The position numbers and the translations under genes were made by a program. A DNA stretch of 64,000 bases from Candidatus Omnitrophota bacterium (lineage in GTDB: Bacteria; Omnitrophota; Gorgyraeia; Gygaellales; Profunditerraquicolaceae). The notes below the pieces were generated by a model that was not told the origin of the DNA, searched no databases, and was given only the letters and a program-made list of their open reading frames with translations. Below, one piece after another: positions 16,860-59,000 of this stretch. Each line of letters starts with the position of its first letter. Within the stretch, counting starts at the first letter, position 1. Where the stretch lies: NCBI GenBank assembly GCA_029571225.1, contig JAKPTF010000035.1:12575-76574 (forward strand), in the 5' to 3' direction.

Positions 16860-16863
16860 GGGC

Positions 16864-16965: not shown

Positions 16966-16981
16966 CGCCTTACTATTAAAA

Positions 16982-17010
16982 AAGATACCATAGAACACCA
17001 TTTCTGTCAA
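16982..17010 (-). promoter_or_regulatory. Sigma70-like promoter candidate (TTGACA - 17 nt - TATCTT)
   Basis: The minus strand has TTGACA at 17005-17010, a 17-nt spacer and TATCTT at 16982-16987. It sits in the AT-rich 217-nt gap after the giant gene. Confidence 0.3.
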
Positions 17011-35000: not shown

Positions 35001-38000
35001 TATGCTGGAAATCCTCGATGATATGGTTCTGGATGATCGAAACTGCAAGAGCATCAAGATACTGTTGGAACGCAGGCAGGCTGGTAACGCTTCGGCATGC
35101 TGCCGGGATCCATGTGGACACGGTCTTATCATCGACCATGTTCATCGAGGTCAGACGGGCCTGGAATTCCTGGGCATACTGCAGCGCCTGACGGAAGTCG
35201 TCGAGGGTGAGATTTCTCGCAAGATCGTACAGGGAAGCGGACCTGCCGTCCTGGAACCAGATCTTCTGGAGGTCAGGCAGGCCTTTCCAGTATATCGTTT
35301 CCTGGAATGCCTGCGCGTAGGCGCGGCCATGGGCCCTTTCGCGGGCGTTTTCCAGGATGCCTTGCTGGACCTCAAGCCGCAATGCAACGCGCCTGGAGGC
35401 ATATTCCCTGAGATCATCCGGTATTGCCGGATGGGCCAGTATTTGCCTCGCCTTATCAGCTTCGAACCGTTCGATCCAGTTATTAAGTATCGACACGAGC
35501 GATCCCCGCTCGATTCGTGCGAAAATCGGCGCTGCATTATCAACATCTCTATCGGTCAGATAATCTACGGAAACACGATCGAAGCGCCGGACAATCGCCT
35601 GATCATTGGCAAGGCGAAGGATATGCAAACAACATGTGCCTGCACGGCGGCCGAATACATCCAGCATCATCAAACACCATACTGCCAAAGCCTTTGAACG
35701 GGGTAATTTACTGATCAAATAGACGGCAAATGAATACCCGACGCATCCCAGAACAATCGACATATATATATTTCGCGTATTCCACCATACGAACATGGGA
35801 TATATGGCCGGAATGACCCATGCGATAATAAATGTAAGGATGATCGGCACGGCATTGCTCTGCATCCTCGGATTCGCTGCTGCGGGATACGCCGGCTGAT
35901 CCGGCCACAGGCGCAGGTTCTTGATGAAACCGAACGGCCGGAGCAGGGACTGTCCGCCAATACCTCCATCGAAATTCTCGAGAATATATCCGTGCTTTTC
36001 CATATGATCCGTGCTGACAAACGCGAACGTCGGGCTAACGCCGGCCTCGCGGTTGGGTACTTTTATTATGCGGTAAAGGCCTAAGAGCCAAATGGAGTGC
36101 ATACCGAGGTACAGAGTCTCATCAGTTGCATTAAAAAAGACATGTTGTATCAGGCGGGAATGAAATATATCGGATTCACCACAGGCATAGTCCCGCAAGC
36201 CGAACTGGAGGCCTAAACGGGATGACGTGCTGATGCGCGTCGTATTTGAACGGCCGTCTTCGATGATCAGCGTATCCCACGTTTCGTGAAAATCGCCGGT
36301 GCGATCGCCATGGCACAAAAGCGATGACAGGTATATGGAAAAAGACAATTCTTTCCGGTCATATACCAGTGTAAACCGCCTGTTATCCGGCTGCCATATG
36401 ACGGTATCCCGTGTTTTTTCCCTTCGCAGGGCGTCTACTTTATCCAGATGTTTCGCAAGAAGATCAAACCTGGCCTGCGCCAGGCGCATGTGATGATACC
36501 GTTCATCATCGATCTCATCGAGCTTATCGAACGGGATGAAGCTGCTTCCGATCGGCAGGCTTGCGAGCAATTCCTGTTCATTCCTGAATGACTCGATTTT
36601 TTTACCGGCTATCGCGGAGACCGCCAAAGAACTGGTTTGTGCGCGCACAACTATCAACGCTTCAGACGGTTTCCCGAAGGCTGAATTTGAAAGTTTGCGG
36701 AATATGATATCACCGGCTTGTATCTTTTCCAATCCGGATATTTGGGGGGCAAAAGACTGTAACTCTGACATGTGGTTGGAAAGCTTGTGTTCTTCAGACA
36801 AAGTGTCCTTGTTAAATTCGCTCAGATACAGACGCATCCAGTCGCGGAGGCTGCGGCAAGGACTTGTCTTTTCCTGGCGCAGAAGATCAAACGCCGGCGG
36901 ACCGCGTAAGTCTTCGACAACATTGCGGTCAAACCACGATAAATCAACCGATGCCGCCTGGCTGATCGACTGCGCAACACCATGAAGGTCATCGTCGCTA
37001 ACGGATCTCATGGATCCGAAGCGGATCGTATTGTTTATCTCCGGGCAAATCCCTGGTACGCGGCTTGCCAGGGCATGCGCGGAGGACTGAAAAAGCAGCG
37101 CTTCATCCCTGGTAAGACTTCGGTACGCTTCAACCCGTGCAAGGAACGCGGATACTTCGGCATTGATACCGGGCTGTTCGCCTTTGCTGCGAATATAGAG
37201 CAAGTGCGCAGGCCTCATAAGCGCCATGAACATGAATATTTTCCTCTGCGGGATAGTCAATTCTTCCATGGCCTGCTTCAGCGCATTATTCATAACCAGA
37301 CAATACGTTGTACTGCCCTGTGCCTCATCCATGATGTTCACATCCCAGGGGCTCTCAGTGCGATCCGCCCAGAAAAACCCCGTTGAGCCTTTTGTAAGAG
37401 CGCAATAATAACACGGGTATACGATCTTCATCATGGCCAGGCCATGCTCATAAACCCTGGTATCCATGGGAAGCGCGACAAAATCCGCAGAGTGCTTTTC
37501 GATGAACGAAGACTCAAGCGCAAGCTCCCCGGCAATAAAACTGATGTTTCCTTTCCTGTCCGCGCCTCCGTCTTTGGGCTTCTGCGCATAAAGATTGACC
37601 TCATACAATTCAGACCGTTCCCAGTACGGGAACGCTGCTTTGGCAAGCAGCGCCCGTTCGTATTCGTTCAATTTCATATCAGAAGCAATCCCGTCAATTA
37701 TTGCCTGTTTATCCTTGGCCGGCAGCGCGTTCCAGTCATGCCTGCCCTGCTCCACAAAAAGCCTGCTGGCTGCGGCAGACGCCTGATTTTTGATTAATCG
37801 AATTTTACCGCCGTGGGGAAGGGTTTCAGAAACAAAAGATTCATCTTCCAGTACCGTGTTTATATATAGTCTCGTCCAGCCGCCCGAAGCCACCTGCTCC
37901 TGAAACGCCAGCTCCCTGCAGATATCGATCAGCTTTTGGTCTCTGCTGAACCACCGATTGTACCTGGTATAAGCTCTGTAACGGGATGTGATCTCAGTAA

Positions 38001-41000
38001 TGATCGCCATGGCCTTGATAGCATCCAGATTTCGCTTGAATTCGGCAAGGTCAACTGCCAGACAGGCGGCGGGGATACCGTCATTAAATAATGGTTTGAT
38101 ATCGACTTTACCGTTCAGATACACATAAAACCCCTTGATATGTTTCAGTGCCTGTTCGAAATCCCGTGCAGGAATAGTTTTCAACAGGCGCAGGAAGTCC
38201 GTGTTTGAGAACAAATCCCTGAAGAGCCGGTCAGCATCTGCGTTTCTTTCATTCTCCAGCAATCTGAAAACGGAACGCTGATCTAACGGATACGCCTTGA
38301 TCTGGTTCAGCATATCGTAAATCAACTTCGCCTTTTCCCTGCCGTCCGGCTCCGATGCCGCAGCCGTGACGATCTTATAGTAAAATTCGGTTTCTTTCTT
38401 TGCCCGCGGCAATAATATCCAATCGCGCCTTTCTTTCAATTCACGCGTCATTTTCCACCACGGATGGTCGACGATTTTGATTGTTTTCATTTCCTGGCCA
38501 TTGATAAGCCACTGGGTCAATACGCGCATCAATACATCATTATCCAGCCGCCCGTACAACGCTACTGCCCGGGCATACTCCTTATCTGCAATAGACGCGG
38601 GATCCTGTTCATCGAAATCCCTCATTTCCTTCAGGTCATTCCCGAATGAGCTCACTCTCTGTATAAACAATTGGACCCGCTGCGCCCGTGCAATAAGCAG
38701 GCACAATCCGGTGGTGAGACCCAGAACGATTAATAGTGCCGTTTGATTATCTACTAAAATAAAACAGGCAACGATGGTGACAACCAGGAAAACGCCGAAA
38801 GCGAGTATATTAAAGAATTCCTCTTTCATGAGAGAAAGATCGCCTTCTTTTACCTGTGCCATCTGCAGGCGGATACCCGGCTCTAACAGAATCTCGCTGA
38901 TTCCGGTGCCGGATCCCTGCTGCCTGCCGCCGTCTTTTAAAGGCGGGAGCGCATCTTCGGAAATGCCAGGATCCAGGGATTTATTCAGATGGTACCATTC
39001 CTTAAGAGAAGATAACTGATTGTCCTGAAACAGGGTTCTCATGAATCCGGCTTTCTGCTCGGGCGTATACGCCTTCCACTCAGGTTTTGATTGCTCGTTG
39101 AAGATCCTGAATACTGCTCTTTTGAGATTATCCGGGCCATGTGCCAGGATAGTTTTCAGGTATACGTGCGTCCAGGAACCAGTCTGGCATCTCGTCCAGA
39201 GTTCCAGATCATCGGCGAGTTCCTTCAAATACGCGACCTGCGCGAGCGTATCATTGGCGCGGTATTGTGCCTGCTGCCATTTGATAAACCTGGCAACGAT
39301 GCCTTCGATGATCACCATGCTCTCGACGCCCTTAAGGTTCTCCCTGAAAGACTCGATGCTTGCCACACCACGGCATGCGGCCAGCAACCCTTCATTGACC
39401 AGCTCACCTGTGCCGAGGCCTGAACGCGCCAGGAATGCATACAGGCCGCTAATCAGTTTCAGGCATTCCCGGAAATCCTCGACAGACAGGTTACGCACCA
39501 GATCCTTGAATTCCTCGCGCGTGCGCATTTCGACAAAATCCTTTTCGATTTGCTGCGCGCGAACATCCCCCAGGGATGCGCTGTTCATATCCCTCAGCAT
39601 ACTGCATAATGACTTAACTTTTGCCTTGGCGTCACCGAAAGACGGCACCGCATCCTGCATTGCGTCAAGGAGAAGTGCCTCATTCTGTATCAGAGATTCA
39701 TATACCTTGCGTCCTCTGCTCATCGGCCGATGCGCCATAATAAGCGCTATCTTGTCGGACTCTCCCCTGAACAGCAGGTCCTTTAAAAGCAGAACGGTCA
39801 TGTAATGCGTGGTCCAATAGATGGCCCTGCTGGCGTTTTTGATCTGCCGTTCTGAAAGGGCCTTTGTTTGAACTGCATAAAATGTATTCAGGGCTTCAAA
39901 TGTCCAGGAAATACGCCACATTTTCCCGAAAAGACCGTACATATAACGGGTAAATTTAAATATACAGGCAAAGAACATCCAGATAAACGGCCAGATTGCT
40001 GCTAAAACTACCGCCGCAAAAATGCCCGTGTTCTGCGATATGATTACGCCGCCTACGAGATGCGGGCCGAAGATACCAAAGGCCACAAGCCCAGAAATCA
40101 AAAGAATACCACTGATAGAGTGCCATGGCAAGAAGCCTTTCGTAATGATCTCAAGAGCACGTTTAGCCTCCTGCCAGAAAATGTTGGTCAAGTACTCTAT
40201 CAGCCGCTGCCTGGCAAGTTCCAACGACAGCCTTCGATATTCCTCGTACGTATAGGGGAATCCTTCTGCCTTATGCCGCGTGCTTCTGCCGCCGTCCTTC
40301 TGGCCATTGCCGTTGACGTCACGGCGGCCTGCGGCGTAGAACCCGCGCTCCTGCAGGATCTCGTCGCGGATGATCGAAGCAATGGCAAGCGGCACGTTCT
40401 CGATGTCGCCCTCAACAACCCAGTGCGAATACACCTGCTGGACATAGGTAATACCTTCACCGATGCCTAAACCGATGACCTTGATGCCTTCAGCTTCGGC
40501 TTTCTCAATTTCCTCCTGCATGACCGCGGTATTATTGAAGTGGCCGTTGCCCTCTCCGTCTGTGATGATGATAATAACACGGCTATCTACTGTTTCTTCG
40601 CGCATCTTTTCTACTGCCAGCCGCAGCGCATCGACGTCGCATGTAGCGCCGCCACCCATGAAGTTTATGATCTCGCTGATCAGCTCTTCTTTTTTGGCCA
40701 GGTCAAGCTTCTCGTCAAATTCTTTGTGCACCCATGCCCCTGAATGAAACCCGATGACGTTGAATTCAATGTTCAGGTACTGGAGCGTCTCCATGAGCAG
40801 GACCAAACCATGGATCTCGTCTTCCACGCGGCCCATCGCGGGAATACTGCCGCTTTCGTCCAGCAGCAGCGAGAACCTGTGGCTGCGCGATTCCGGCCGC
40901 GTCTTGCGCAGCCAAACCTTATCGTCGCTAATGCCCTTGACCTCATATGCGATATCCGCCTGCATTAGCCTGCGAAGGTCTATCTTCTTGCCGGTGCGGT

Positions 41001-44000
41001 AGAAACCCTTGAAGCGCGGCTTTGTATCCTTGTGCAGGATGTTGTCGAGATAACCGATGAGCGTATTGATGATGACGCTGACCGGGGCGTAGTATTTGTC
41101 ATAATCAGTAGAGTGCTTTTTGCGCTGGATCTCGAATTTACGCTTGAGGTCGATCAGATCGCCCAACGACCTGCCTTTGAACTGCGCATCGCGGGCCGCT
41201 TTCTTCTGGTCAAGCCGCTTGTCGCTATCCTTATTGCTTTTCCTGTCCGTTTCGTCTTTCTTTGGTTTTTCGCCGGCTTCCTGCGCTGCCTTTGCTTCTT
41301 CTTTTTCGCGCTCTTCCTGCTCCTGGCGCAGGCTTTCCTCCGCCGCTTCGATCTCATTCTCCTTCTGGGCTTTCTCTTCCGCGTTCTTTTCTGCGTGCGT
41401 ATATACCTTTGCGCCGAATTTATCAGCCATTTCCTTCGATTTCTCATCGACGATCTGGCGCGCACGTTGCACGATCTCTTCTTCGCTTAATTCATGGTCC
41501 CAGTCCTCTTCGTCGTTCTGGTCGCTGCTTCCACCTTTCTGATCCTTATTTTGAGGTTCCTGGCCGCCCCCGCCGCCACCCTGCTGGTCTTTTTGATCCT
41601 TATTGTCCTGCTGGCCTTGCTGCCCCTGCTGGTCGCCCGACCCGCTACCGCTCCGGTTGCATTGCTTGCAGCCTTGTTGATTCCGTTTCCTGACCTGGTC
41701 CTTCACGAGATTTTCCGATTCCTGCACTAACGGCTCGTACACAGGCATGATCTTGTCGCGCAAGACACGCATCACGTTCTTGGACGCCTTGAGCTTCTCG
41801 GTCGCGGTCGGGTTGAGGTCCATAAGGACTTTTGTCTTCTCGTTGATATCCGGGGCTGATATCTTGCGTTCATGTCTGCGGTTATCTTTGATAACAAGAT
41901 CTTTTTCCCCGTCCCTGCGCACGGATAATCCCAGGTCTGGAGCATCGACTGCCTCATCGCCTTCAGGATACATGACTGTCTGGCGCCTGCCGTCCGCCGT
42001 TGTAATAGTCAACTTATCTTTGTCCGTGCGTTCAACGTCTATCGTGCCGGCAAGGGTGTTGAAGATGCCGGTATAATCCTTTCTGGTTTTCTCCAGAGCT
42101 TCCAGGACATTCTTGTTTTTGATGCGCGGATGCGGTTTGCCGTACGCCCAATCGTGTATGGCGCCAAAACCGTACTGCAGATGCGGCAGGACCTGCTGGT
42201 CATTGAATGGCTCGTTCGAGTCAGCGCCGAGCAGCTTGGGATCCTCATAAAGCGCGTCAATATACTTATCAGCTCCTTCGAATTTCTTTTTTGTCCAGTT
42301 ATTGACGCGCGGGTCTTCGAGGGCGTTCCAGACGAATTGCCTCGTCGGTTTCTGCTTGACGTACGGATCAGGGAAGGTGATGTCGCGATGGGCGCCTTCA
42401 TGAAGGCACGCGCCAAGCACGAATTCTTCCTTCTTATCAAGCAGGTCCGATTCCGGGCAGTGCATCACCGGCGGCTTGGCTTCAAGGTCAACGCCCCACA
42501 TGGGGCCCGGGCCGGGCTGGATCTTCATGTCATGGCCGAACGACCGGGCCATGGATTCGACGCGGCGCACCTTATCCTGAATCTTGCGTTCCTTTAATTT
42601 CCGGGCGAGCCAGTTCTCCTGGTCCTGCCTGGCATCGTCCGCAGCCGGCTGCTGCTCATTCTCATCCCCCCCGTCTTTCCTGCGCAAGACCGCGTCAGGA
42701 TGAACAAGCTTTGATGCAGCAATCTTCTCGGCAATGGCTTCTTTTGTTACGATGAGGGGTTTTACGACTGCGGGGCCCATTGCAAGCAGTTCTTCCCGGG
42801 TGATTTCGCGTGTCAGATTATCCAGGCTATCGAAACGTTCGATGATCGTCTTAAGCTGCGCATCGCTGATGGCGGCGACTTCTGATGCGCTTGCGATCGC
42901 GACCGGGCTGAATTCTTTCATGACACAAACCGTTTTATCCAGCGCTTTGTCAATCAGAGGCAATAACGCGCAGCACACGACCCGGTGCGCCAGCGGCAGA
43001 GGCGGGCCCGTGGTCAAGACAGGCGATGCCTTTCTCTGCGCGCGAATGATATCTTTTTCATTCGGGTTTATTCCGCTTAATGCCTCGGCAATGCAGCAGC
43101 GCGGCCACTGCGCATACAGAATATCTTCCAGCTCATCACTGAGTCTTTCCATTGCATCCAGGACAGCATCAGTACGCAGAGCCCGAGGTTCCATTGCTGC
43201 AAATTCCGCATAGTGCTGCTGCACATATGCCTCATCCAGGCTTAAGGCTTCAGCGATAAACCGTATATTCGCATCCTCTTTTTCTCCACCGTCCGCTTCC
43301 TGCTCTTTGGAGTACGCCGGGATATCTTTATTCGGGTCAAGCGCTTTGTTCAGCTTATACCATGCATGGCCGTTAAGCCGAAAATCCCTGGCCAATGCCC
43401 GCAGGAATGCATCTTGTGCGGATGGAGAACGGCCTTTCCAATCAGGCATTGCCTGTTCTGCGAACAATTTTTTTACCGCTTCTTTCAACGGTCCCTCATC
43501 TTTCTCAAGGATCGCAGCATAATAGACCTGTGTCCAGGCGCCAGCTGGGCCTCTTGATTCCAGTTCCATCTCCTTGCTCAATCGGAGAAGCTCTTGTTCC
43601 TGCAGGAAAATGTTCTCCTGGCGGTATTGCTTGGTTTTCCACTCGTTGAATTTAACGATAATACCTTTAACTATCTGCTGGCCCTCAATACCTTGTATGC
43701 TGGACCTGAATTCCTCAAGGTTTGAAACTGCGCGCGCCGCAGCGGGAACTCCCTCGGAAAGCGCCTCATTGGGATCAATATCCTTGCTGCTTAGAAACAT
43801 ATACATATCTTTGATGAAATCGAGGCTTTTACGGAAATCATGTGTCGGCAGGCGGCGGATCAGATCAAGGAAATCAGGATTCCTGCGCATTGTCCCGAAT
43901 GCCGCTTCAAAATCGACCGCCTTGCCCCAGACGTTTTCGAGCATTGCGTCTTTAAGGGCGACCAGTGCATTGACATTATCGCGCGCTTCTTCCGGCGACC

Positions 44001-47000
44001 AGGACATGATCCATACCTGGTCAAAGAAAGAAGCTTCCTCGCGGATATCCTCTTCAATCGATTTCTTCTCTTCGTCGGTCCATACGGACTCAAGCTCAAG
44101 GATCCTCTGTATCCTGTCCTCTTTTCCGTTGAGCAGCATCCGGCGGAGCACCATGGCGCGGTATTTTGCAGACATCTGTTTCAGGAATTTTCCCGCGAGT
44201 GCAATATCTTCCTGTGATATGTCTTTCACAGGCCTATCATAAACCTTTGAAAATCCGCGGAACCTCTTGTCAAAACGGACCGACCGCACGGCGAACCGCA
44301 ACGCATTAACCCCTGTGTAGAGCGCCAGCGTAAAAGCAAAAAAGATAAACAACGGCACGAAACATACGGGCTGCAGTAACAGTCCGTACCAGATCCAGTC
44401 AATGATAGTGTAAAGATATAAGTGAACACCCAGGAACACATCAAGCAGATATGCCGCGATGGCCGGCATCCACACAAAACCAGCCATCAAATAAACAAAA
44501 AGATACTTGCAAAATATGTCCTCCAGGACTGCATTCAGTTTCGCGCGCGTACCTAACCGCTCCGATTCTTTGCCCCTGATAAATTCGTGTTTCATATCAT
44601 CAACAGGGAACACAGGCGCATCGCTGCCGCCATCTTTAACCGGATTGGCGCATTCAGGCGCGCTGATACCTTTGGTCAAACAGGAATTAACGATCTGTTC
44701 CATTTCCTCCGGCCTGAACTCGCCGTCGATCCAGAATTCCTGGAACTTATTCCTCATGGCCAGCGAAAGCCGGTTGCGGCCTGCATACCTGCTCGGGTTC
44801 ATGGCGGCGAAGAGGCGGAAATCAGGATGCGGCCGCACCATTTCGCCCTCATGTTCGGTGATGACCAGGTATCCGTCGTCGTCAAGCAGGGAATTGATGC
44901 GCTCGAGTATCTGCGGTTCTGCGAGATTGATCTCATCGAGCAATATCCAGTATCCCTTTTTCATCGCCTCAACAAGCACGCCGTCGCGCCAGCCATATCT
45001 GCGCTTACCCTCTCCTTCCAGAGGCAGATATTCGCCGATAAGTTCCGACGTATCGGTCTGGCCGTCAAGCGACACGCGCACGAAATTGGCATTGGCCAGG
45101 CGCGCCATATAACGGATAAGCGACGTCTTGCTGGATGCGGTCGGCCCGACAAGAAGGACATACTCGCCCATTTTTATGGACGGCGCGATCCTCACCAGGT
45201 ACGACAGCGTTGTCTGGATGTGAACAAGCGCCGCATCAGGTCCTGGTATGTACGGCCCGCCATGCCGGAGCTTTTCAACCCTGACACCGCTGAAATCGAC
45301 CCCGTCAGGATCATCGGTAATGCCGTACGTGCGTGACGCCTGCGCGGGAACATGGCAATGCTTTGCAACAATCCGGTCGAACACCGCCTTGTCCTTTGCG
45401 GTGCGCAAACAGCTGCCGTACACCTCTTTCATCTGGCAGCACAAAAGGTCATGCAAGTCACCCTGGCCGTTGTTGAGCAGGTTTATCCTGTTCGACACGC
45501 GCAGGAGGTTGCGGAGGGTAAAATAATAGAACTCCCCCTCCTCTGAACCGAACAGTCCTTCGACGCCAGCGGTGCGGATTTCGTAGTGAAGGTCGCGGAT
45601 GATCCGGAGGCTGTTGCCGTCCACCTGCGTGAACTTGCGCTCGAGAAGGTCAAGGAGCTCCGATTCCGGCATCTCGTCGATCCATTTGACCCTGAACCGG
45701 TTCATGAAGGCAGGCGATAGCGCCTTGCGGCCCGCATATTCCACCGGGTTCATGGTCGCAAAAAGCCTGAAGTCCGGGTGGGGCACGATCTTTTCGCCTT
45801 CGTGTTCGCGCAGGATTATGTTGCGGTCGTCATCGAGCAGCGAGTTAATGCGCTCGATGATCTGCGGCTCAGCAAGGTTGATCTCATCCAGGAGCAGCCA
45901 TTGGCCTTTTTTCATCGCGTCGATAAGGATGCCGTCGACCCAGGCGAATGAACCGTTGATCTGCGGCCGCGATCCGCCGATGAACTCCAGCTTGTCGGTC
46001 TGGCCGTTCAAGTTGAACCTGCGGAAATCGTTATTTGTCATGGCAGCCAGGTAGCGGATGAGGGATGTCTTTCCGACGCCGGTCTCGCCGACGAGAAGCA
46101 CCTGCTCGTTCATGGCCACCGCATACGCAAGTGACTGGAGGTTATGCACGGTGCTGGGCGTATGGATCAGCTGCGCCGTTGCCTTATTGGGCACGTATGC
46201 CCCGGCTTTTTGGTTGACCGGAAGGACGGTCAGGCCCACGGTCACCTCGTCATCCGTAACCTTTATGGCATCCTGCGGCGTTGGAACAAATACCGCAGTA
46301 TCGGCGCCGCTCGCCGCTGCTCCGAGGTCCTGCAGAAGAACCGCAAACTGCCGCATGTCTTTCTGTGTTTCCATGCGGTCCTGATATACGTACATGGCGC
46401 CTTCCAATACCGCTTTCTCGGTCCCGATGGACTGATACATGTTCACGAAACGAGCCCACGATTTCAAGTCCCTGATGCTGAACACATACCCCTGCAGGCC
46501 GCTGCCGGAGAGCGCGCCGGTATTGACGAGCGAAAGCAGCCTCATATGCAGCCTGACCATTGCCCCGGCAATCGCGTCCTTATCCGGTACCTGCAAATAC
46601 CTGCCCACGATCGTGATCAGCTCATCCTTTTGGAAATTGCCGTCAATCCAGATCTCATGGAACTTGTTGCGCATTGCTGGCGAAAGCTTGTTCCTGCCGG
46701 AGTACCTGCTCGGGTTCATGGCGGCGAACAGCCTGAAGTTCGCATGCGGCCTGACCTGCTCCGCCTCATGCTCGGTAACGATGATTGAGCCATCGTCGTC
46801 AAGGAGCGGATTGATGCGCTCGAGGATCTGCGGCTCGGCGAGATTCACCTCGTCCAACAGCACCCAGTATCCCTTTTTCATCGCATCAATAAGGACACCG
46901 TCGCGCCATACATATTTCCTGCCAAAACCGTTGCCTTCAGGCGCGTATTCGCCGATGATCTCTGCGGTATCGGTCTGGCCGTCAAGGGACACACGGACAA

Positions 47001-50000
47001 AATTATTTCTGGTCAGATATGCCAAATACCGCACGAGGGACGTCTTGCTTGCTGCGGTCGGGCCGACAAGAAGTACGCGCTCGTTCAGCCGGATCGCCGG
47101 AATTATATGGCGAAGGTAGCGCATGGTTGTCGGGATATGCACAAGGCTTGATTCCTTTCCCGGGACATACGGGCCGTCCACGTTGTTTATCTCCGACGTA
47201 TCCAGCGCCATATTGTTCGGATCATGCGCTCCGTTGGGGCTCAGACCGCTGAACGTCGTATCAAGCAGGTCTGCGAATATCTGCTGGTCCGTCTCGGAAC
47301 GGAGTGCGCTCGCATAGACCTCCTTGGCCTCTTCGTTGAACAGCCGCTTCAGCGCGAATTCATTAACCTGTTCGCCGTCCTCCCTCATCCGCTTTTCGCG
47401 CAGTTTAACGCGCTCGCACAGGCGGATCAGGTGCCTGAGGGTAAAACAAAACGGCTCTCTTTCGTCCCTTCCGAGGATCCTTTCCTTACTGTCGCGCACG
47501 AGCGATTGATGCAACTGGTCAATGCGGCCGAGAAGCAGGGTATCGAACCCGAATTTCTCATTCAGCAGGCTGATCCGTTCGCTCGGCAGCATCTCATCGA
47601 TCCATTTGACCCTGAAGCGGTTCATAAGCGCGGGCGAAAGGACGTTCCTTCCTATATAATCGGTCGGGTTCATGGTGGCGAACAGGCGAAAATCCGGATG
47701 CGGCACGATCTTTTCGCCGTCGTGCTCCCGCAGGACGATGTTATGGTCGTCGTCCAAAAGCGAATTGATGCGCTCGATAATCTGCGGTTCTGCAAGGTTG
47801 ATCTCATCCAGAAGGAGCCACTGGCCCTTTTTCATCGCCTCGATAAGGATGCCGTCAACCCAGGCGAATTTCCCGTTTGCCTGGGGCCTGCGGCCTCCGA
47901 TGAATTCCAGCTTATCGGTCTGGCCGTTCAGATTGAACCTGCGGAAATCATTGTTGGTCATGTATGCGAGATAGCGCACGAGCGACGTCTTGCCCACGCC
48001 GGTTTCACCGACCAGAAGCACCGGATCGTTCAATGTCACTGCCTGCGCGACCGCTTCAAGGTTAGAGACCGTGCTTTGCGTATGGACGAGCTGCGAGGAC
48101 TCTTTCTTCGGAACGAATGCGCCTGCCTGTTTCTTCACGGGAAGGATAACCGAATCAACCCGCACCGTATTGTCTTTTATTTCGATAGTGCCTTCCTTAT
48201 ACGGCAATACGACAGGCCCCTCTTCCTCTTTCTTTTGCTGCTGGTCCGCTGCCGGTTTTTCTTTCGGGCCTTCGACGGCCTTGCGGAACCTGATGAATTT
48301 CTCCGCAACGTCTGCGGACAACGGGCCGACCGCGATATGCGCTGCGTCAACGCTGTCGGATTCGTTCTCCAGCTTCTGCAGGGCAACGGTAACAGCCGCG
48401 CTCAATGCAGGGTTCAACCCCATGAGAAGCTCATTGCGCAGCTTTTCCGAAAATGCGCGCAGGCGCAAGTCGCCGATAACCTCGATGGCCGCCTTTTTGA
48501 TCTGGGTGACCTTGCTGGCAAGCGGAACATCGAGCAGCACCGTCGCAATCTCGCGCGGAAGCAGGACGAATATCCGTATGCCTTCCGCGATCTTCGCGTC
48601 CTCGCGGCTTGCAAGCATCTGGGCGATCTGTTTGAGGTACGGCTGCAGGTCCTGCGGAAAGTTCTCCGTTGCCCTGCGGAACTGGTCCGCGAGGCTAAGC
48701 GACGTAAAATCCTCCTCCTGGACGAAGTCAGCCATGGACATGATGTCGTATGTCTCATAGGTCTGCTCTTCCCACACTACGTCGATGTCGAAATCCCTCG
48801 ACTTGCTGCCCGTTGACGCGAATTTAGATTCCTTGACGATCTCCTTGAGCTGCTCCTTATCCTGCGGGGATTCCAGGCGGTCCTTGAACACGTACATGGC
48901 GCCCTTGAGGAACGTAGTGCGCATGTCGGCGTTGAAATTCTCGTTGAACGTCTTGATGAAATACGCCCATTGTTTCACGTCGCGCAGGGAGAAACTGTAT
49001 CCGTCATTGCCCATCTTGCGCCTGCCGATCTGCCCTTCCTGGATGCGCTTCTGGACATGCTTGTAGATCTTGATCATTTCCGCAATGACGTCGTCTGCGG
49101 CAAAACTGCCGAGGTAATGACGGATGATCGAGGTCAGCTCCTCATCGGTAAACTCACCGTCCATCCATATCTCGTGAAACTTGTTGCGCAAAGCCGGGGA
49201 GATCTTGTTGCGGCCCGAATACCGGGTCGGGTTCATGGCGGCGAAGAGCCTGAAGTTCGCATGCGGCCTGACCATCTCGCCTTCATGCTCGGTGACGACG
49301 ATAAAGCCATCGTCGTCTATGAGCGAGTTGATGCGTTCGAGGATCTGCGGTTCGGCAAGGTTCATTTCGTCAAGGAGGATCCAGTAGCCTTTTTTCATCG
49401 CCTCAATAAGGACGCCGTCGCGCCACAGATAGGAACGCTCCGCCGCATTCTCACCCGGGATATATTCCCCGATCAGCTCGCAGGTATCGGTCTGGCCGTC
49501 GAGGGAGACGCGCACGAAATTGTTCCCGGTCAGATGCGCAAGGTAACGGATGACCGATGTCTTGCTCGAGGCAGTCGGCCCGACGAGCAGGATGCGCTCA
49601 TTCTGGCGGACAGCCTTGATGATCTTGCGGGCATAGCACAAGGTGGACTTGACGTGCACGAGCTTTGCTTCTTCCCCGGGCACATACGGCCCCTGCACGT
49701 GTTCGATGCCGGACGTATCCAGCTCCTCGTCGGATACCGGGCAGGAATAGCAGTCGACGCCCGGAAAGACCTGCTGCATCTGTTCTTTGAAGACCTGCTG
49801 GTCTTCTTTTGACCGCAGCATGCTGCCGTAAATATCGCATGCCTCCTGCGCGAACAGCTTCATCACCAGCGGCCCGAACTCGAAATTATTGTTCGTGCGT
49901 GCTTTGACGCGCTTGGCAATGCGCAGAAGATGCCTGACGGTGAAATAATACGGTTCCGGCTCGTTCTTGCCCAGGGTCGGAGCAATGCTGCGCAGGTTCT

Positions 50001-53000
50001 GGTGAAGCATGATAACGCGGGCGATCACGTCCTCATCGAAGCCGAATTTGCGGCGCACAAGATTCAACAACTCGCGCTCGCTCAGTTCCTCGATCCATTT
50101 CACGCGGAAACGGTTCATCAAAGCGGGAGACAAGGCCTGGCGGCCGGCATACTCAACCGGGTTCATGGTAGCGAACAGGCGGAAGTTGGGATGCGGAACG
50201 ATCTTCTCACCGTCATGCTCGCGCAGGATGATATTGCGGTCGTCGTCGAGCAGCGAGTTGATGCGCTCGATGATCTGCGGTTCTGCCAGGTTGATCTCAT
50301 CCAGGAGCAGCCAGTATCCGTTCTTCATGGATTCTATCAGTATGCCGTCAACCCATTTCAACGTGCCGTCGGCCTGCGGCCTGCGGCCGCCGATGAACTC
50401 CAGCTTATCGGTCTGGCCGTTCAAGTTGAACCTGCGGAAGTTATTATTGCTCAAATAGGCCAGATAGCGCACAAGCGACGTCTTGCCAACGCCCGTTTCG
50501 CCGATGAGCAGGATAGGATCGTTAAGCGTCACTGCCTGGCCGATCGCCTCGAGATTGCTCACGGTCGAGGCTGTATGCACGAGATGAGCGACGTCTGCGG
50601 AAGGGACATACGGCCCGCCCTGTTCATTGATCATTACCTTCGCGCAGCCGACCTGCACATAACCTTCCTTGGGCGGCAGGATGCGATTGTTCGCGTCGCG
50701 TTCGTTGAAGTGCTTGCGCGACCGCACGGACTCAAAACATTGCTTCATTTGCGGATGATATTTGGCAAAAACAGCTGCCACTTCATCTGATTTCTTCTGC
50801 AGGTCTTCCGGCAGGACCGGCGCATTGAGATCGACTTCTGCAGCCACATCTTTTAATAATCTGCCGTCCACTTTCTTATAGCCGAGCGTAATGAGCGCCC
50901 GCGCTGCCGATGCTGCCACAAACCTGTCTTTGCGGTCCAGGAGCGTCATCAAGTATGTTGCGTATTTCTTGAACCGGAATTGATTGACCAGGTCGATGAT
51001 CGCCCGTTTGATCGGCCCATCCTCATAGGTAATGGTATGGTCGATCAGCTGTTGCGCTATTTCAGGCGGCAGGCCTTTCCAGGCATAAATTGCGGCAACG
51101 GTCGTCATATCGACTTTATCGCTGAGCATTCCGGAACTTTCCCTGATCGCTCCGGCCAGATCTTCAGTTTGGCCGCGGACAAAATACCTGAACAGGACAT
51201 CCAGGTTGTTTGAGAACAAAATGTCCCGCTCGTCAAATCCTTTGAATTCCACGATCTGGTCAAACTCATCGCTTGCCGCGACATCGATAAAGCTGCCCAG
51301 ATTCAGCTCCGACATAGTTTTCATGAATTCTTTGCGGTCCTCGGGCTTTTCCATGCGGTCGCGGTATACGTACATCGCGCCCTTGACGAATGACCGGGCA
51401 AGGCCCAGTCGAGGGCTGAACTCGCGCACGTAATTCGACCACGCGCGCAGGTCTCTCAGGCTGAACTCATACGGCTCTTTGCGGCCGGCGCCGATCATGT
51501 TCTTTTTAACCTTTTCCCTCAGCTTGGAATGCAGACAGACCATCTCCTTAACCACCTCATCCTTCTGCGTGAGGTTCTCAAGGGGTTTTATCGCGTCTGC
51601 GACCAGGTCTTGTTTACCGCCGTCCTTCATCGGCGCAAGTGTCGCCTCGGTCACCGCAGGATCGAGCGCCTTGTTGAGCTGATACCATTCTTTCTGGTTT
51701 AACCCGTAGTTCGCAGCCAGGGAATGCAGGAAATCCACCTTTTGCTGCTGCGAATACGCTTGCCATTCGGGCTGGGCCTGCTTGTCATAGAGTTTAAGTG
51801 CGGCGTCATGGAAATCCGGCCGGATATCCTTGAGGATAGTCTTGAGGTAAACATGCGTCCATCCGCCCGGAGGACCGCGCGCAGCAAGCTCCATGTGCTC
51901 ATAGAGCCTGATCAACTGTTGTTCCTGTCCGATAACGTCCTTACGCCTGAATTGCCGTCCAAGCCACGATTCGTATTTGGCGACCACGCCCTGGACCAGC
52001 TGGTAACTTTCGATGCCTTTGAGATTGCTGATAAAGTCGTCTGCGCTCCTCGCTCCCCTCGCTGCTGCAGGCACGCCTTCGGAGATAGCCTCATCAGCCG
52101 CGATCTCCTTGGAACGGAGGAACTCGGCCAGCGCCTCGATACTGCGACAGCACTGCCTGAGCTGTTCCGGAGCCAGGCTAAAGACGAGTTTTTTGAAATC
52201 TTCGTGCCTGCTCATGGTCTTGAACGTTTCAAGGCTGACACCGGCCTTTTTGTCAAGCCGCACCTGTGCCGCACTAAGCACCAGTATTTTTAACCTGGCT
52301 TCTTCAAAAGACTGTGAGTGATCCGCAATCTCATCCTGAAATGCACCTTCTTCCTGCAATTCACGGAGCAAAATTTCCGTGTTGCGCTTGTCAGAGAGTG
52401 TATTAATGATCCTGCGGGCAACATCCGAGCGGGAATTAAGCAGGAATAATTTAAGCAGCCCTGCTATGTCCTTATTCGACCACTGGCCGATGATGCTGTT
52501 CATCTTTAAGATCAGCTCATCAGGGCACGGATCACAATCAGGGATCAGCATTTTTTCGATCACCGCTCTCTCTTTGTTACTTATGGAACAAGATACCCGC
52601 AACTGCCTGAATGCGAACACGGCATATATGCCAAGATGAATAAGCGACGCTACCAGCATCACAGGCACGAAAAGGCAGCAAACGCTTCCGAAGAGCCAAT
52701 AATACCAGGGGATTACAAAAGTTATGCCATAAAACCATTCTATTCCGACTAAGGCTATGGCGAATATTATTCCACCGAGGATTTCGCCGACGGGTACTAT
52801 ATGAAGCGCTATAAAGGCCCCGAGAAACTTCGAGTCCCATAAACCTTGGATCCTCTGATCACATTTGGCCGAGAGCTGTTCCAATGCAGCGTCTTTATTC
52901 GCCAGGGGCAGCGCCGCATACTCGGCAAACAGTTCCTCCTCGTCCGGATTGCCGCCGTCCATCAGCGGCGCCAGGGTCGCCTCGGTCACCGCAGGATCGA

Positions 53001-56000
53001 GCGCATAGACAAATTTCTGCTGTAGTGATAACGTCTCCCAATCAGGCCGCAAGCGCCGGTGATACAGCTGGGTAATAGCCTCTTTCAACCGGCCGGGACC
53101 GCATGCTTCCCTGGCGATAACAAGAAATTCCAGATTCTCCTGGCGGCCGCCGTCGAATGCCCCGGACATGCGATAGTGCTGATCTATTGCGGCATACTCT
53201 TCTTTTACCCTGGCCATCCATTGATCATGAGCTTCCCTGCCGTTTTGCCCGGAGAATTCCGGTATTGTTTTCTGCGCTGTCGTTGATATCAGGTCAAACA
53301 GTTCCGTGTCGGATCCGGTCCCGGTGCCGAATGTATGCTGCAGGTCGCGTATAAGACATATCCCCATGCCGATGCGCTCGAGAACCGTCTGATCGTACAG
53401 ATTCTGATATGACAGAGAAGAAATATTCCTGGCCAGATGAGCCGGCGACAGGAAAAGCCATTCTAACATAAGCGATTTGATAATGGTCGCCGGAACGGAT
53501 AATGAGATCCCACCCAGCACCAGAGACACGGCAACGGCGGAGAGCCAGGTAATAGGCGAGACGATCACCACCCATATCAGGATGTAGCCGATGTTAAGGG
53601 ATGCCTTTGCGCACCATGAAAGCACGGTATCAATGGTGTTTATCGTCTTGCGGTGCCTGCCAAGGGCGAGCGGCCATCCTGCCGCATCTTTACTGCGTGT
53701 TTTCCATCCGATCAGATGAGCTGTCATACGGCAGGAATCAGTTTCCAGGGACGGATATAAACCGTTGAACACCGCCGCTGCCAGATTGACATGCGTGAAT
53801 ATTATCAGCGCAAGCCAGGGAGACGCGATGTTCGGGATCAATACCGAAAAGGGCGCGATCCCCAGGGAATACAGGACGATAAGGCCGATCACTGCCAGGA
53901 TGAGGTTGGATAAAGGCCCTGCCGCTGCTACGTAGAAGCCGGACCGGCTGGAGCTAGTGATCGCCGTTGCGGGATCCTCCTCGACATATGATGAGACAGC
54001 GGACAGCCTGATGCGTCTTATGGGCCTCTTGAATCGGATCATGACGAGCGCATGCGCGGCCTCATGGATGGCTGATATGGAATATACTCCGAGAGTCAAG
54101 GCGCCCAGCACCGGGTTCAAGACCCACAGGACGATTATTGCAGGAACAAGAAGAACCAGATTAAAGTGCAGTTCGATCGGGATCGATGTGGGCAGGTGAT
54201 AGACGCTTGAGAACCCTCTTCCGGTCCAGCCGGATTTTCGCCGCTCCGTTTCAGATTCTCCGCCGTCGCGCAGGATGACGTGCGGCAGGGTCTGATAATC
54301 GGGCACGACGGTGCGGATGTTCACCGCGCGCTTGAGCTTCTCCCAATCGACCTTATTGAGCTGATGCTCTGCGGCGATATTCTTCAACCAACCCAGCTTC
54401 TCCTCCAAGGATAAGCCGTTCCATTCAGGCCCGCTTGTCTTCTCAAACACCTTGACCGCCGCTCTGCGCAAAGGCGCATGGGGTCCGTAGTTTTCCTGTA
54501 TCTGTGTCCTGAAATACAAATAGGTCCAATCTGCGGAATCACGAGGTATCGTCAGCCCGATTTCTGATATAAGATCCTTCAGTTTAGTCTCCTGAACGTC
54601 AAGTTCATAATTATGCCCGAGCGGACCGTTAATAAAATAACCCAATTCCCACTGTTTATATGCCCGCACCACAGCTTCTTTCAGGGCCCAGAACTTAATG
54701 GCATGCAGATTCCGAGCAATCTCCTCTTTGGTGGCGGCGCGGGTCGCCGCGGGCACAGAATCGCATAATATCCCGTCGACTGCGATCCCCCGGCTGCGAA
54801 GGCCGCTGCACATCGAGACGATCATATCAAGGCTTTGCTGAAAATCATCCTGCGCGAGATTGCGGATCATTTCCAGAAATTCAGTCTGCGTGGTAAGATG
54901 AAGAAACACCTCGTGGGCATGCCGCATACCTTCCGACCCCTCTCCCAGGTACGGCACAAGCTGACGCTCAAATCCATACAGGGCGCGCAACCTATCCCTG
55001 GCGGTTTCGGCACTATCTGCCAGGCGGAATACTTCGCTCTGGAACTTTAACTCTGCCTGTAGCGATTCCGTAAGCCTTGCTCTTCTTCTATCGTTCCAGA
55101 CAGACAACGCGCAAAACCGCACGGCCTTGTCGCCCTGCAGCCGGGAGAGCCAATCCTGGATCAGAAACGTCAAATACCTGTCCGGAAGCTGGCTGAAGGC
55201 TTTTGCCGATCTCTCCAGACTATTATCAGATACATCGGAGCTGTCAGATACTATGATCTTCTTCATCCGGGGATGATCAACGCAATGGTGCACGGCCAAC
55301 GCAATATCATACACATGACCCGTGAGGAATAAAGCGCCCATAACAGGCATGATATAAAGAATATTCAGGGAAAGCGTGAAACCCACGCCAGCAGCTATAA
55401 AGTTTAAAATTACAGTCATGAAGAAAACTATCCATCCAAGATCAGCTTCTGGTGACGTATGATATGTCCGCGCCTCCAGTGTTTTCCAGAAAGGGACCTG
55501 CGGCAGAGCCTTGCATAAGCGATTAGAGATTTCTTCATCTGCCACAAGCAGCATATTGACTACGAAGTTTAAAATAGATATCATGAATATTGTCGCGCAC
55601 AAAATGAGGCCCAGAGCGGACAACATAAAAATTCCATCGATAGTCACGGCCTGCGTATAGAACTGCCATGCCAGACCTGTATCGCCTCCTGACAACGCAG
55701 CCCAGGCCTGCGCAAAATATGAAAGAGATATCTGATCCTGGGGGGTTAAGAAACCGGCGGCGAAAACGCTGCATGCAGTCCACAGCGACCCGCCATCCGA
55801 ACGCAGGCTCGCCAGTCCGTCCTGGTCTGTTAATTTCTCCCGAATAAGACCGTTGTTGAACTGCGGGTTGACCCAGACGATCCTTCCATCAGGCGTAATG
55901 TCGCAGAGCGCGGGGCACACAATATCGATGCCGAAGGTCCTGTGCCACTCATCCTGTATATCGCGCGGCAATATCAAACGGTATATGTCGGCCACCGCAC

Positions 56001-59000
56001 GACCCTGCTCGACGTGGGTATATGCGGCCCTGTCCGGCCAATTCGCCGGGTCAAGAACCGTTTGCCAATCCGCCTCTGTAATCTCTCCCTTCTGCAGGCC
56101 CAACACCACCCTTAAACTGCTCAAGAGTTTTTGTCTTTCCTTCGAAAGGTCGCCGCCGTCATGCTCTGCCGCTAAACTAGTCTCCTTGGCACTGATTATT
56201 TCAAGCGCATCCCCGGCCATTTGAAGCGTTGCTTTCATACCCCGTATCTGCTCATCGGAAAAATCGCCGCTGGCGCGCACACTTTCAGCGATCTCATCGC
56301 GCATCTCTGCGGCGCGCGCGCGGCGGTCCGCAGGCTTTTCCTCCGCAACCAGATGGTGAATACCCTCGGCGATCATAACCAGGTTCCGGTCGTTCATGAA
56401 GTCTGCCGGGCGCAACTGGCCGGCAATATCCTTGAGCTGCTGTACCGACGTTATGGCATAATCGTGGTTAACCAGGCCAAAGGCTGAAAACATCAAAACG
56501 AATACACCTATAATTCCCAGGCTGAAGGGCACATAAAACGGAAGAATGCCGATTACGGACAATACCGCCAGGGCAATGCAACTGACCGCGACAATCCGGC
56601 TGTAGACTACGGTCACCCTGTTCGCATAAACGACATTTGTTTTCATCGCAAGCAATGACCTGATCACGCGGCCCGAATCAAGCGGGTACATCGGCATGAA
56701 AAGATTGAATATGCCCAGAATCCAATTGATCAGGCCAAGCGACACCAGCCAGGCGAGCGGGCTTGCCATATCTATGACCGGCCAGGCGAACAGGTTGAAC
56801 GAAGCACCCAGGAGCGCTGCGGGAACGAACAGCGACGCTGCTATGCCGAAACTTGCAAGGGGGCCGGCAATGGAAACCAGAAATTCCTGTTTCGGATCCC
56901 TGAACTTCATGTCCCGGATCGCCGTAGTGCCTCCCAGGATATGAAGCGTAATATGATCCGTTTCAAAGCCGTATCGCCGGGCAGCGCGGATATGCGAAAA
57001 TTCATGCGCCAGCACTGACAGAAGAACGGCAATATAGAACAACAGAAGTTCCCATCCGGTTAACGCAAACAGGGCAATCGGAATAACCAGCGTGATGTGC
57101 AGCCGCAGCGGGATCCTGGTCGGTATCTGTAACGATGGAAATATCCCGTCGCCGACCAATTCCCAGGATTTGCTCTGCGCTGCGCCGCCGTCCCGGCTCG
57201 CATCGATCCGTGTCGACGGACAAACCACCCTGGCTCTGAACCATAGAGGAACATGCCGGATCATATCCTGCCTGATCGAAACAGCTTTTATAAAGCTGTC
57301 CTGCGCCATGTCTTCAAAGCCAAGGGCAAGCGACATTGCCCCCAGGTTTACATGTGATATATGGCACGCCGGATTGAGCTCGATTGCCTTCTGCATCTCT
57401 ATAATGGCTTGCTGAAAATAACCCTGCCGGTAATAGAGTAGCATGCTGCGGTTATAGAGAACCGACGCGTAATCGGGATTCTGCTCAAGCGCCTTCCGAT
57501 ATGCCGAAAGTGCGGCGTCATAGTGGCCGAACTCCGCATATACCGCTCCCAGGTTATTATAAATACAACAGCTCACGCCCGGCTTATCCATTATCTGGAA
57601 CCCGAAGTAAAACAGATTCAATAATTCTTTCTTTGTGATGCGGTCGACATCCAGCACGCCTGCCTGATATTGCTGCTCGAGTTCGATAACACGCTCGCCG
57701 GATATTTTATAGTTTGGCTTGAGTACCCAATATACGCCTGCTTTGCGGTAATATTTCCTAACATTGACGACCCGCAACGTGTTTAATATGAAATCGATCA
57801 CCAGCAATCTTTTCTTGTCAAGCATGAGCCCGACAAAACAATGTCCGATACGGCTGCAACCCCGGACGTTGAATCCCAACATTGCCAGGATGATATACGT
57901 CAATTGCGCGGTTACAATACATCGCGCGAGGCATGCTTTCATAGCAGCGCTTTCGCTGCCGGAACGGGAATCGGCATCAATGACATCGAATATATTTTCG
58001 TGGTTCAGGCTGTTGACTAACAGCATGCTTATCTGCGGCGGATCAACCTCTTCAAAAATCCGGTTCCTGTCGAACAGGTCCCACACCACAAGCATTAATT
58101 GGCCGAGATGCTTTCTGCCTTCGGGGGCATTACGCAGGCACTGATGCCATTGCGCTGATTGTTCTGTAAGGGTTTGCCATGTATCTTCAGGAAGGACCTG
58201 TTTGATCTGAGCGTTCAACGCCGGAACGGCATTTTCAGGATACCCGATGCTCACGAGAATACCGGATAATTTTTCATCATACGCTCCGCCGTCCAGGCTG
58301 AGATACAACTCCAGAGCCTTGTTCCTGACCAGCGCAGTCATTTCCGCTTTCATATCGGCATCGTCAGGGTGCGCCATGCAGCGGCGGAAGGCGCTATCAA
58401 AAACCCGGGCCGTGAATTCAAATCCTGCGTTATAGTAAAATTTTATGTAGCCGAACATCCCTGCCGGATCGCGGTCGATCACCGGCGACGGATCATGCGC
58501 AAATCCCCTGACCGCGCCCTCATGAAGGGAATATATTGCACGGAGCCGTTCGATGAATATCTCGCGCGTCCAACCCTGATGCCGGTATTCCGGGAACAGG
58601 AAGAACCCGGTATTAAAGAACCACTTGGAATGCCAGCCAAATCCGACAATCCCATCCCTGTTGGCCAGGATCTCGAGCCTTTCATGGCGGCCGCCGATCG
58701 TGACGTTGAACCCGCGGGGTCTTTCCGAACAGGACCAGTGTATCCCGCGGCCGAGGATCGTCGTGTAGAACGGATCGTTCTCGAACATCATGATACCTTC
58801 TGTCTCAAGACAGAAATACGTCCTGCCGTAACGGGCGCTGTGCTGACTTATTTTTGCATCAAGCATTGCTACCTGGTCAGAGCTATCGGCCCAATCGGAA
58901 TCGAAAAGCTCGATCGGCTCTTTGATCCTGCTGACGATTTCTTCGCGTCCTGTCCCGCCGTCGCGCAGCGCTCTCTCGATCATCTTGATGTCGCTTGAAA

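Follow-up and report, generated by a model that had tools for sequence, protein, structure and literature searches.

Is a six-module AAA+ ring with a MIDAS-bearing tail, the architecture of eukaryotic midasin (Rea1/MDN1), also encoded by a bacterium? The question is raised by a stretch of 64,000 nucleotides from Candidatus Omnitrophota bacterium (contig JAKPTF010000035.1, positions 12,575 to 76,574; hereafter the window), in which a giant open reading frame (ORF) on the minus strand encodes six AAA_5-type modules and, further along the same frame, a VWA domain with a MIDAS motif. A first-pass annotation, made from the letters alone, had read this order as a midasin hallmark interrupted by Asp-Gly-Gly (DGG) sites. 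Our analysis indicates that the region is likely to encode a midasin-like AAA+/MIDAS remodelling machine of prokaryotic type in two halves, a ring and a tail, that are carried within the giant ORF and parted by processing at DGG. The ring-tail unit is a real feature, of the MoxR/midasin AAA-VWA kind, inside a probable bacterial polyprotein. Both halves are homologous to known AAA+/MIDAS machines, their linkage is conserved in relatives, and DGG is strongly enriched in the frame and placed between its modules.

The unit and its immediate neighbours are laid out as follows, with residues (aa) numbered along the giant ORF:

17077–63999, minus: giant ORF of the Omnitrophota multi-enzyme giant protein class, running off the right end of the window
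51616–52950, minus: transmembrane (TM)-anchored helical module ahead of the ATPase (aa 3683–4127), with a K-DGG end at 51616–51624
44626–51615, minus: hexa-AAA_5 segment (aa 4128–6457), made of a B-type lid, a HEAT-like region and A-B-A-B-A-B modules, with a K-DGG end at 44626–44634
51364–51582, minus: N-terminal B-type lid (aa 4139–4211; Pfam AAA_lid_5, E = 3.5e-7)
49975–50592, minus: AAA module D1, A type, GETGVGKTS, with P-loop and Walker B
49054–49671, minus: AAA module D2, B type, GPTASSKTS, with P-loop and Walker B
47482–48099, minus: AAA module D3, A type, with P-loop and Walker B
46537–47154, minus: AAA module D4, B type, GPTAASKTS, with P-loop and Walker B
45562–46179, minus: AAA module D5, A type, with P-loop and Walker B
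44635–45237, minus: AAA module D6, B type, ended by DGG after the large subdomain
43285–44625, minus: TM-anchored helical module, one of seven copies (aa 6458–6904), with an A-DGG end at 43285–43293
42667–43284, minus: 206-aa module with no family match (aa 6905–7110), with a K-DGG end at 42667–42675
40288–42666, minus: tail, composed of HExxH module, tether and VWA (aa 7111–7903), with a K-DGG end at 40288–40296
41662–42549, minus: HExxH module (aa 7150–7445), with HEGAH at 42388–42402 and NALEDPRVN at 42301–42327
41167–41679, minus: Q/G/K/D/E-rich tether, defined by composition (aa 7440–7610)
40342–41079, minus: pre-MIDAS motif and VWA/MIDAS domain (aa 7640–7885; Pfam VWA), with DESGS at 40846–40860
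38926–40287, minus: next TM-anchored helical module (aa 7904–8357), with a K-DGG end

The DGG sites at 51616–51624 and 40288–40296 thus flank the whole unit from ring to tail. The TM module, the 206-aa module, the HExxH region and the DxSGS VWA domain described at first pass were all recovered at the positions given for them, as were the three DGG sites placed between the ATPase and VWA parts at 44626, 43285 and 42667.

The ATPase half is a segment of 2,330 aa that forms an (A-B)x3 chain. Its P-loops lie at aa 4499, 4806, 5330, 5645, 5970 and 6284 and read GETGVGKTS and GPTA[SA]SKTS in alternation, a Walker B motif of the form hhhhDE is present in all six modules, and Pfam AAA_5 matches the segment at E = 1e-127, with AAA_3 matching as well. 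The three GETGVGKTS/GPTAxSKTS pairs of the first-pass annotation are thereby confirmed. Lids of the midasin type were recognized by Pfam above cut-offs, namely AAA_lid_7 (four stretches), AAA_lid_5 and MDN1_4th. Solved structures of Rea1/Mdn1 match the segment at E = 4e-176, compared with 2e-12 to 9e-10 for NorQ, CobS and CbbQ (NorQ 2e-12), and eukaryotic midasin sequences align with it at 26–31% identity (E about 1e-155 to 1e-190). The midasins are outscored by a few prokaryotic proteins, at 32–41% identity.

The segment has the layout lid(B)-A-B-A-B-A-B, in which D6 consists of the large subdomain only and stops, without a lid, at DGG 6455. The N-terminal lid resembles the lids that follow D2 and D4, the same N-terminal lid is found in the homologues P0002 and P0009, and judged by these resemblances it would probably complete the lid-less D6 on ring closure. 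Identity is 72–75% among the odd modules, 62–67% among the even ones and about 50% between the two types. At third codon positions, identity between copies is about 0.56, equal to the level seen between A and B types, and no stretch of identical DNA exceeds 32 nt. The copies have thus reached saturation at synonymous sites, which means that the triplication is old and that the similarity of the copies has been kept at the protein level; a recent triplication or gene conversion of AAA pairs was rejected on these figures.

As an observation on the B-type modules, the Walker A motifs at 49581, 47064 and 45147 (minus strand) all read GPTA[SA]SKTS. Ser here occupies the position ahead of Lys that is otherwise a conserved Gly, and this Gly is retained in the homologues P0002, P0003 and P0005.

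Over nearly its whole length, the 793-aa tail can be aligned with the C-terminal tails of four hexa-AAA proteins from other organisms, P0003, P0004, P0005 and P0008. The alignment with P0003 reaches E = 2e-104; that with P0004, from an Omnitrophota metagenome-assembled genome (MAG), is partial and covers the HExxH module (E = 1e-64); P0008, also from an Omnitrophota MAG, aligns in three pieces (best E = 7e-36); and the alignment with P0005, from a Thermoproteota MAG, reaches the P0005 C-terminus (E = 1e-36). Invariant in this first tail alignment are H-E-x-x-H, N-x-x-E-D-P-R-x-N, D-x-S-x-S and T-D. Neither PADLOC nor NCBIfam yielded an informative match for the tail, and a word-indexed protein search with it returned only two matches, low-complexity words probably dominating the candidates.

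The HExxH motif is HEGAH, at aa 7199. In an alignment of 14 sequences of the module, the HExxH core and most of NxxEDxR are invariant (H60, E61, H64, N85, E88, D89 and R91), so that both the HExxH and the downstream acidic third ligand expected of a zincin/gluzincin are present in every sequence. An AlphaFold2 model of the module (predicted local distance difference test score 88.9) shows a helical core and, after it, a beta subdomain, and its structural matches to minigluzincins and Ste24 are weak. The module is rare: an exhaustive search of 1.84 billion proteins found 99 representative proteins that contain it, with lengths of 116–7,557 aa.

The tether between the HExxH module and the VWA domain had been described as an acidic linker. 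Its low complexity is borne out by a composition rich in Q, E, K, G and D, and it is only mildly acidic, with 25% D+E, 19% K+R and a net charge of -11 over 171 aa; it is a mildly acidic polyampholyte. In the predicted model it is disordered or forms single helices, and its place is taken in homologues by low-complexity sequence whose length varies. The VWA domain that follows is matched by Pfam above the curated cut-off (E = 2e-8), with DESGS and TDG conserved. The Rea1 MIDAS domain (6qt8) matches the tail at E = 5e-5 in an alignment that includes the pre-MIDAS stretch, FYRTGKKIDLRR...DKVWLRKTRP in the tail and FRTGKRLNIKK...DKIWMRRAIP in Rea1, and the best Foldseek matches of the AlphaFold2 VWA model are the NorD VWA (E = 3.5e-10) and the Rea1/MDN1 MIDAS (E = 2.5e-9). 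As judged from the pre-MIDAS alignment, the likeness between the tail and the Rea1 MIDAS exceeds the generic VWA fold.

Ring and tail also occur together elsewhere. Scanning the tail alignment against one genome per species located the tail at 52 genome loci, in MAGs labelled Omnitrophota, Planctomycetia, UBP9, Elusimicrobia, Bacillota, Patescibacteria and DPANN archaea, among others. At seven of these loci, about six AAA modules and the tail share one ORF of 3,200–6,600 aa; at six, the tail has directly upstream of it an ORF of some 750 aa that carries two AAA modules (tandem A-B); and further loci have a single-AAA neighbour. Pfam recognized two AAA_5, two AAA_lid_7 and a C-terminal AAA_lid_5 at the tandem loci L015 and L021, where the VWA tail is a separate ORF. 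The A modules of the window score best against tandem D1 (223–229 bits) and the B modules against tandem D2 (226–233 bits); D6 is the exception, with lower scores of 188 and 192 bits against the two. Overall, the window modules rank tandem A-B partners (188–233 bits) above midasin D3 (129–152 bits) and the latter above the single-domain partners of the tail family (91–98 bits). The AAA-VWA linkage is therefore conserved, as a single chain or as adjacent genes: ring and tail are joined in one protein in related Omnitrophota and encoded by adjacent genes in several other phyla.

The first-pass annotation had named two outcomes that would speak against a midasin-like AAA-VWA unit, AAA domains that are ordinary MoxR modules of recent triplication and the lack of a conserved AAA-VWA linkage. 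The first is contradicted by the gap between the midasin and NorQ matches and by the saturated synonymous sites, the second by the recurrence of the linkage among the 52 tail loci, and the failure of both supports the midasin-like reading. The phylogeny of AAA modules suggested at the same time was built by neighbour joining and proved usable for its shallow groupings, for which alone we used it; its deep nodes are unsupported.

At the flanks of the tandem-AAA loci, Pfam detected no conserved third gene. A release factor gene (PCRF and RF-1) lies directly upstream in two of them, L015 (6263–7354, Bacillota MAG) and L021 (5894–7000, Vulcanimicrobiota MAG), and is lacking at the UBP9 tandem loci that were checked.

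What kind of protein carries this unit? The frame, whose stop is at 17077–17079, runs open from 17080 up to the right-hand limit of the window, which gives at least 15,640 aa. Pfam recognizes in it DUF1152, TIM, TPR, two Peptidase_M50, six AAA_5 and VWA domains, and further CoaE, HEAT, ROK, Cation_efflux, HAD and GNAT domains, and the chain shows 53 hydrophobic peaks. With more than 10,000 aa, many TM segments and mixed enzyme domains it belongs with the giant proteins of Omnitrophota, and its domain list agrees with those published for them (West-Roberts et al, 2023; 2026 preprint "multi-enzyme metabolic cluster"). Phylum, scale and TM abundance are common to the giant ORF and these proteins (Archaeovorins; West-Roberts et al, 2023; 2026 preprint), as is domain content that includes TPR, HEAT, TIM, PGI, aldolase, PPDK, HAD_2, GNAT, ROK and AAA_5. 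A public fragment named Candidatus Omnitrophota, P0001, is 100% identical to the giant ORF. Post-translational cleavage of Omnitrophota giants has already been proposed in publications, and West-Roberts et al (2023) state the cleavage points as unknown; AAA_5 appears in that paper only as a bare entry in a figure legend, and text searches of it and of the 2026 preprint found no mention of midasin or DGG. Unlike the published descriptions, which give no cleavage sites, the present frame offers a candidate site in DGG.

DGG occurs 37 times in the giant ORF, whereas 1000 shuffles averaged 4.07 and never exceeded 12. All 37 are in frame, with none and one in the other two frames of the strand and three on the plus strand, and their codons vary synonymously. 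A role as a Shine-Dalgarno or other DNA-level signal was rejected on account of this in-frame restriction, the synonymous variation and the lack of a start codon after DGG. Among xGG tripeptides DGG is the only one enriched; EGG and NGG are absent, with 4.4 and 2.5 expected. At 24 of the 37 sites, K, R or Q stands immediately before the motif. No Pfam domain in the giant ORF straddles a DGG site, the segments between sites have a median length of 341 aa, and the residues flanking DGG are disordered in the tail model. The C-terminus of P0005 lies about 20 aa short of the position of DGG 7901, and the partial homologue P0122 stops at the same position.

The same motif closes the modules that separate ring and tail. 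The TM module after the ring has hydrophobic peaks at aa 6499 and 6539 and is one of seven paralogues (aa 2737–3246, 3683–4127, 6458–6904, 7904–8357, 8358–8811, 9346–9779 and 9780–10269), the others being 22–34% identical to it and each extending to a terminal DGG; the seven-copy alignment has few invariant columns, and those of D, G and G belong to them. One copy precedes the ring (aa 3683–4127, 33% identical to the aa 6458–6904 copy, E = 1e-58) and one follows the tail. The TM module is thus spread along the giant protein and is not specific to the ring-tail unit. Neither it nor the 206-aa module has a Pfam, NCBIfam or PADLOC match, and NCBIfam and PADLOC gave nothing useful for the other unannotated segments. 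Homologues of the ring-tail unit have no counterpart of the 206-aa module, and in them D6 runs into the HExxH module within about 170 aa. A word-indexed protein search with the TM module gave no matches, and metagenome scans with the D6/TM-module/206-aa junction and with the TM module found no relatives, the seven-copy alignment being too diverged as a query. The 206-aa module (42667–43284) and the segment at 35962–37563 (minus strand, aa 8812–9345) both follow a TM module and have a similar start motif, ANIRFIAEALSLDEAYVQQHY and GNISFIAGELALESSFIEKHS, respectively; BLAST drew no link between them.

C39 peptidases cut after double glycine. Cuts after Gly-Gly or between modules are also made in polyproteins by viral papain-like proteases and in MARTX multi-effector toxins. 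Such polyproteins and toxins have a short motif ending in GG between independently folding units of ordinary protein size, as does the giant ORF, where DGG stands at the end of every module. Differences from these systems are the invariant Asp at P3, a cargo of housekeeping-type enzymes and the lack of a candidate protease in the window; the leader consensus of C39 substrates is absent at the DGG sites. C39 peptidases have been reported near the N-termini of Omnitrophota giant proteins, which fits a processing role of DGG. On the pattern of occurrence in the frame, DGG may be read as a lineage-specific processing signal, at which cleavage is plausible.

Several points weigh against a machine of ring and tail parted at DGG. 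Enrichment of DGG was not found in homologues from other organisms. The window contains no Peptidase_C39 or other GG-specific protease, and the 15,640 aa present contain none of the C39 or S8 peptidase and SecA DEAD-like domains that characterize the N-termini of Omnitrophota giants; the N-terminus of the ORF lies beyond the window. The closest relatives have ring and tail covalently joined, so a cis-tethered mode works in the family. Finally, because Ser replaces the conserved Gly, the B-type sites may bind or hydrolyse ATP differently and are possibly impaired.

The lack of such a protease in the window and the single-chain relatives also favour an uncleaved giant, in which DGG is a hinge, cap or modification site, the chain remains intact and membrane-anchored, and ring and MIDAS work in cis with about 650 extra residues as tether. 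Tethering of the MIDAS to its own ring is likewise the midasin arrangement, and the 2026 Omnitrophota preprint reads the giants as membrane-anchored proteins with cytoplasmic domains. A hinge, however, needs no invariant tripeptide, yet EGG and NGG are missing from the frame; the segments have the sizes of ordinary proteins; and DGG follows signal-peptide-like N-termini in three ordinary-sized ORFs nearby, where it looks like a site of propeptide removal. We therefore regard an intact giant as a possible but rather doubtful account.

The unit can also be compared with the systems of a MoxR-class ATPase and a VWA partner. Here the echo of MoxR-VWA pairs noted at first pass holds true, in the matches to NorQ, CobS and CbbQ, in the NorD VWA fold and in the two-gene relatives. 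The systems NorQ/NorD, CbbQ/CbbO, CobS/CobT and RavA/ViaA have the AAA_5-type core in common with the window; the layout of NorD-type partners, an N-terminal domain, a linker and a VWA with MIDAS, is also that of the tail, whose VWA has NorD as its best structural match; two-gene AAA and VWA versions exist in the window family too; and the linkage to a MIDAS-bearing VWA protein by which such systems are recognized is conserved, covalently or genomically. In contrast, MoxR-class rings are homohexamers of single-domain subunits, whereas the window ring is one chain of two alternating types, with trimers of tandem pairs in relatives. The window modules are far closer to midasin than to NorQ or CbbQ, and, unlike MoxR-class partners, the tail has the rare HExxH module as its N-terminal domain. 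That the unit is a MoxR-vWA conflict or defence system within the giant gene, of the type reported by Kaur et al (2020), is improbable. MoxR-vWA pairs are common in conflict systems (PMC7159879) and weak Pfam bpMoxR matches were obtained, but PADLOC matched the unit only at the P-loop level and left the tail without a match, neither an effector nor a third component such as the ternary systems have was observed, and the neighbours are housekeeping-type enzymes.

How close, then, is the unit to midasin itself? Common to both are six AAA_5 modules per chain, lids of the AAA_lid_7, AAA_lid_5 and MDN1_4th families, a charged tether of low complexity ahead of a C-terminal MIDAS, and DxSxS...TD together with a pre-MIDAS motif (YRTGKK...DKVWLRK in the window); midasin is also the best solved-structure match of the ring. 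The two differ in that midasin has a helical linker domain of about 1,700 aa, which is absent from the window unit, where D6 is directly followed by DGG; in that the tether, at the place of the strongly acidic D/E-rich region of midasin, is only mildly acidic; in the HExxH module added to the tail, for which midasin has no match; in the displacement of the B-type lid to the N-terminus; and in the splitting of ring and tail by two DGG-bounded modules. As the host is a bacterium, there are also no pre-60S substrates; midasin acts on pre-60S ribosomes by removing UBL-domain assembly factors. All six window modules score highest against midasin D3 and next against D5, and it is the odd class of midasin that both prokaryotic types, A and B, are similar to, so there is no positional orthology of the six modules. 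Since positional matches and the linker domain are lacking and the HExxH module is added, the sequence comparison marks the unit as midasin-like in architecture and parts, yet not as a midasin orthologue.

Within the midasins P0018 and P0105, D1, D3 and D5 resemble each other, as do D2, D4 and D6 (D3–D5 134–146 bits, D2–D4 72–118 bits). These odd and even classes suggest that midasin itself goes back to a triplicated pair, reminiscent of the prokaryotic (A-B)x3 chain.

Transfer of a eukaryotic midasin gene to bacteria, followed by its degradation, would explain why eukaryotic midasins are the strongest characterized matches, but it is very improbable given that the modules show no D1–D6 correspondence and all prefer midasin D3, that the midasin linker domain is missing, that no match to the HExxH module was seen in midasin, and that tandem A-B or single-AAA relatives with the tail occur in MAGs of UBP9, Bacillota, Vulcanimicrobiota, Patescibacteria (candidate phyla radiation, CPR) and Planctomycetota, and the tail also in two DPANN archaeal MAGs. 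An assembly artefact or pseudogene, which should always be considered for giant ORFs in metagenomes, deserves practically no credence, since a 47-kb open frame is not explicable by chance, the domains are intact and conserved, and two public MAG contigs, carrying P0001 (exact) and P0121 (near-identical), read without a stop through DGG 4125, 6902 and 7108.

The machine parted at DGG thus remains our preferred explanation, and from the parts described we infer how ring closure, docking, cleavage and client handling might proceed. The single (A-B)x3 chain would close into a ring in which the N-terminal B-type lid makes D6 complete. DGG with K, R or Q ahead of it would serve as the proteolytic processing signal of the lineage, and ring and tail would be freed at these sites from their membrane-anchored neighbours. 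They could then operate as a two-component pair, like the products of the tandem-AAA loci, NorQ/NorD, or the ring and MIDAS of Rea1. The tail VWA would dock on the ring, its MIDAS metal binding an acidic residue of the client; in NorQD and Rea1, a VWA loop enters the pore (PMC13036017). ATP hydrolysis would pull or twist the client, and the HExxH module is predicted to provide a second grip on it or to cut it. A bolder form of this model, which we put forward only tentatively, holds that many proteins of this bacterium are membrane-anchored polyproteins cut at [K/R/Q]-D-G-G by a dedicated protease; that the giant ORF would yield 38 products, among them a free ring and a separate zincin-MIDAS tail that together would be a prokaryotic counterpart of midasin; and that the series from single AAA through tandem A-B to (A-B)x3 would show how a midasin- or dynein-type ring can be built.

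Other segments of the giant ORF and the genes next to it offer additional observations. The triosephosphate isomerase (TIM) domain (59704–61737, minus strand, aa 754–1431) looks circularly permuted: it begins at Pfam profile position 54–56 after DGG 751 and has a beta-1-like stretch, KKPFVIFNLKMFE (compare GNWK), behind its C-terminal part. That DGG 751 splits a TIM barrel was considered and rejected, because the permuted domain starts at that DGG. Two DGG-bounded segments (56152–57183 and 53146–54258, minus strand) are Peptidase_M50 membrane metalloproteases, similar to site-2 proteases; they are paralogous to each other, and their HExxH motifs read HEFSH and HEAAH. A cation-efflux (CDF) membrane domain and a HAD hydrolase are joined in one DGG-bounded segment (20491–22347, minus strand, aa 13884–14502), and the CDF domain has a His-rich HEHHH immediately after DGG.

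Downstream of the giant ORF, on the minus strand, lie a PPDK ORF (1–7194), a PGI-like ORF (7218–10073) and an aldolase-PFK-GAPDH fusion ORF (10163–15343). The N-terminus of each resembles a signal peptide, and DGG comes after it at aa 51–79. They have a common C-terminal domain of about 230 aa that ends in ...EDTLNKI and is 44% identical between two of them; DGG stands ahead of this domain in two of the ORFs. Between the giant gene and the fusion ORF, a 553-aa ORF (15330–16991, minus strand) has a hydrophobic stretch in its N-terminal region; it lacks DGG and is matched by neither Pfam nor NCBIfam, and an exact look-up matched no contig.

The literature that we searched contained no account of prokaryotic midasin-like proteins. 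The accepted account, in the part of PMC3495828 that cites Iyer et al (2004), is that proteins with six tandem MoxR-derived AAA modules arose early in eukaryotic evolution. Prokaryotic single-chain six-module rings with lids and a MIDAS tail of the midasin type mean that this architecture is not unique to eukaryotes, and relatives with one, two and six modules and a common tail form a concrete series in which ring assembly can be tested. The HExxH module adds a rare, uncharacterized partner module to the AAA-VWA machines. For one lineage of giant proteins, DGG provides a precise candidate cleavage site, and if cleavage there is confirmed, the giant protein would count as a bacterial polyprotein composed of housekeeping-type enzymes.

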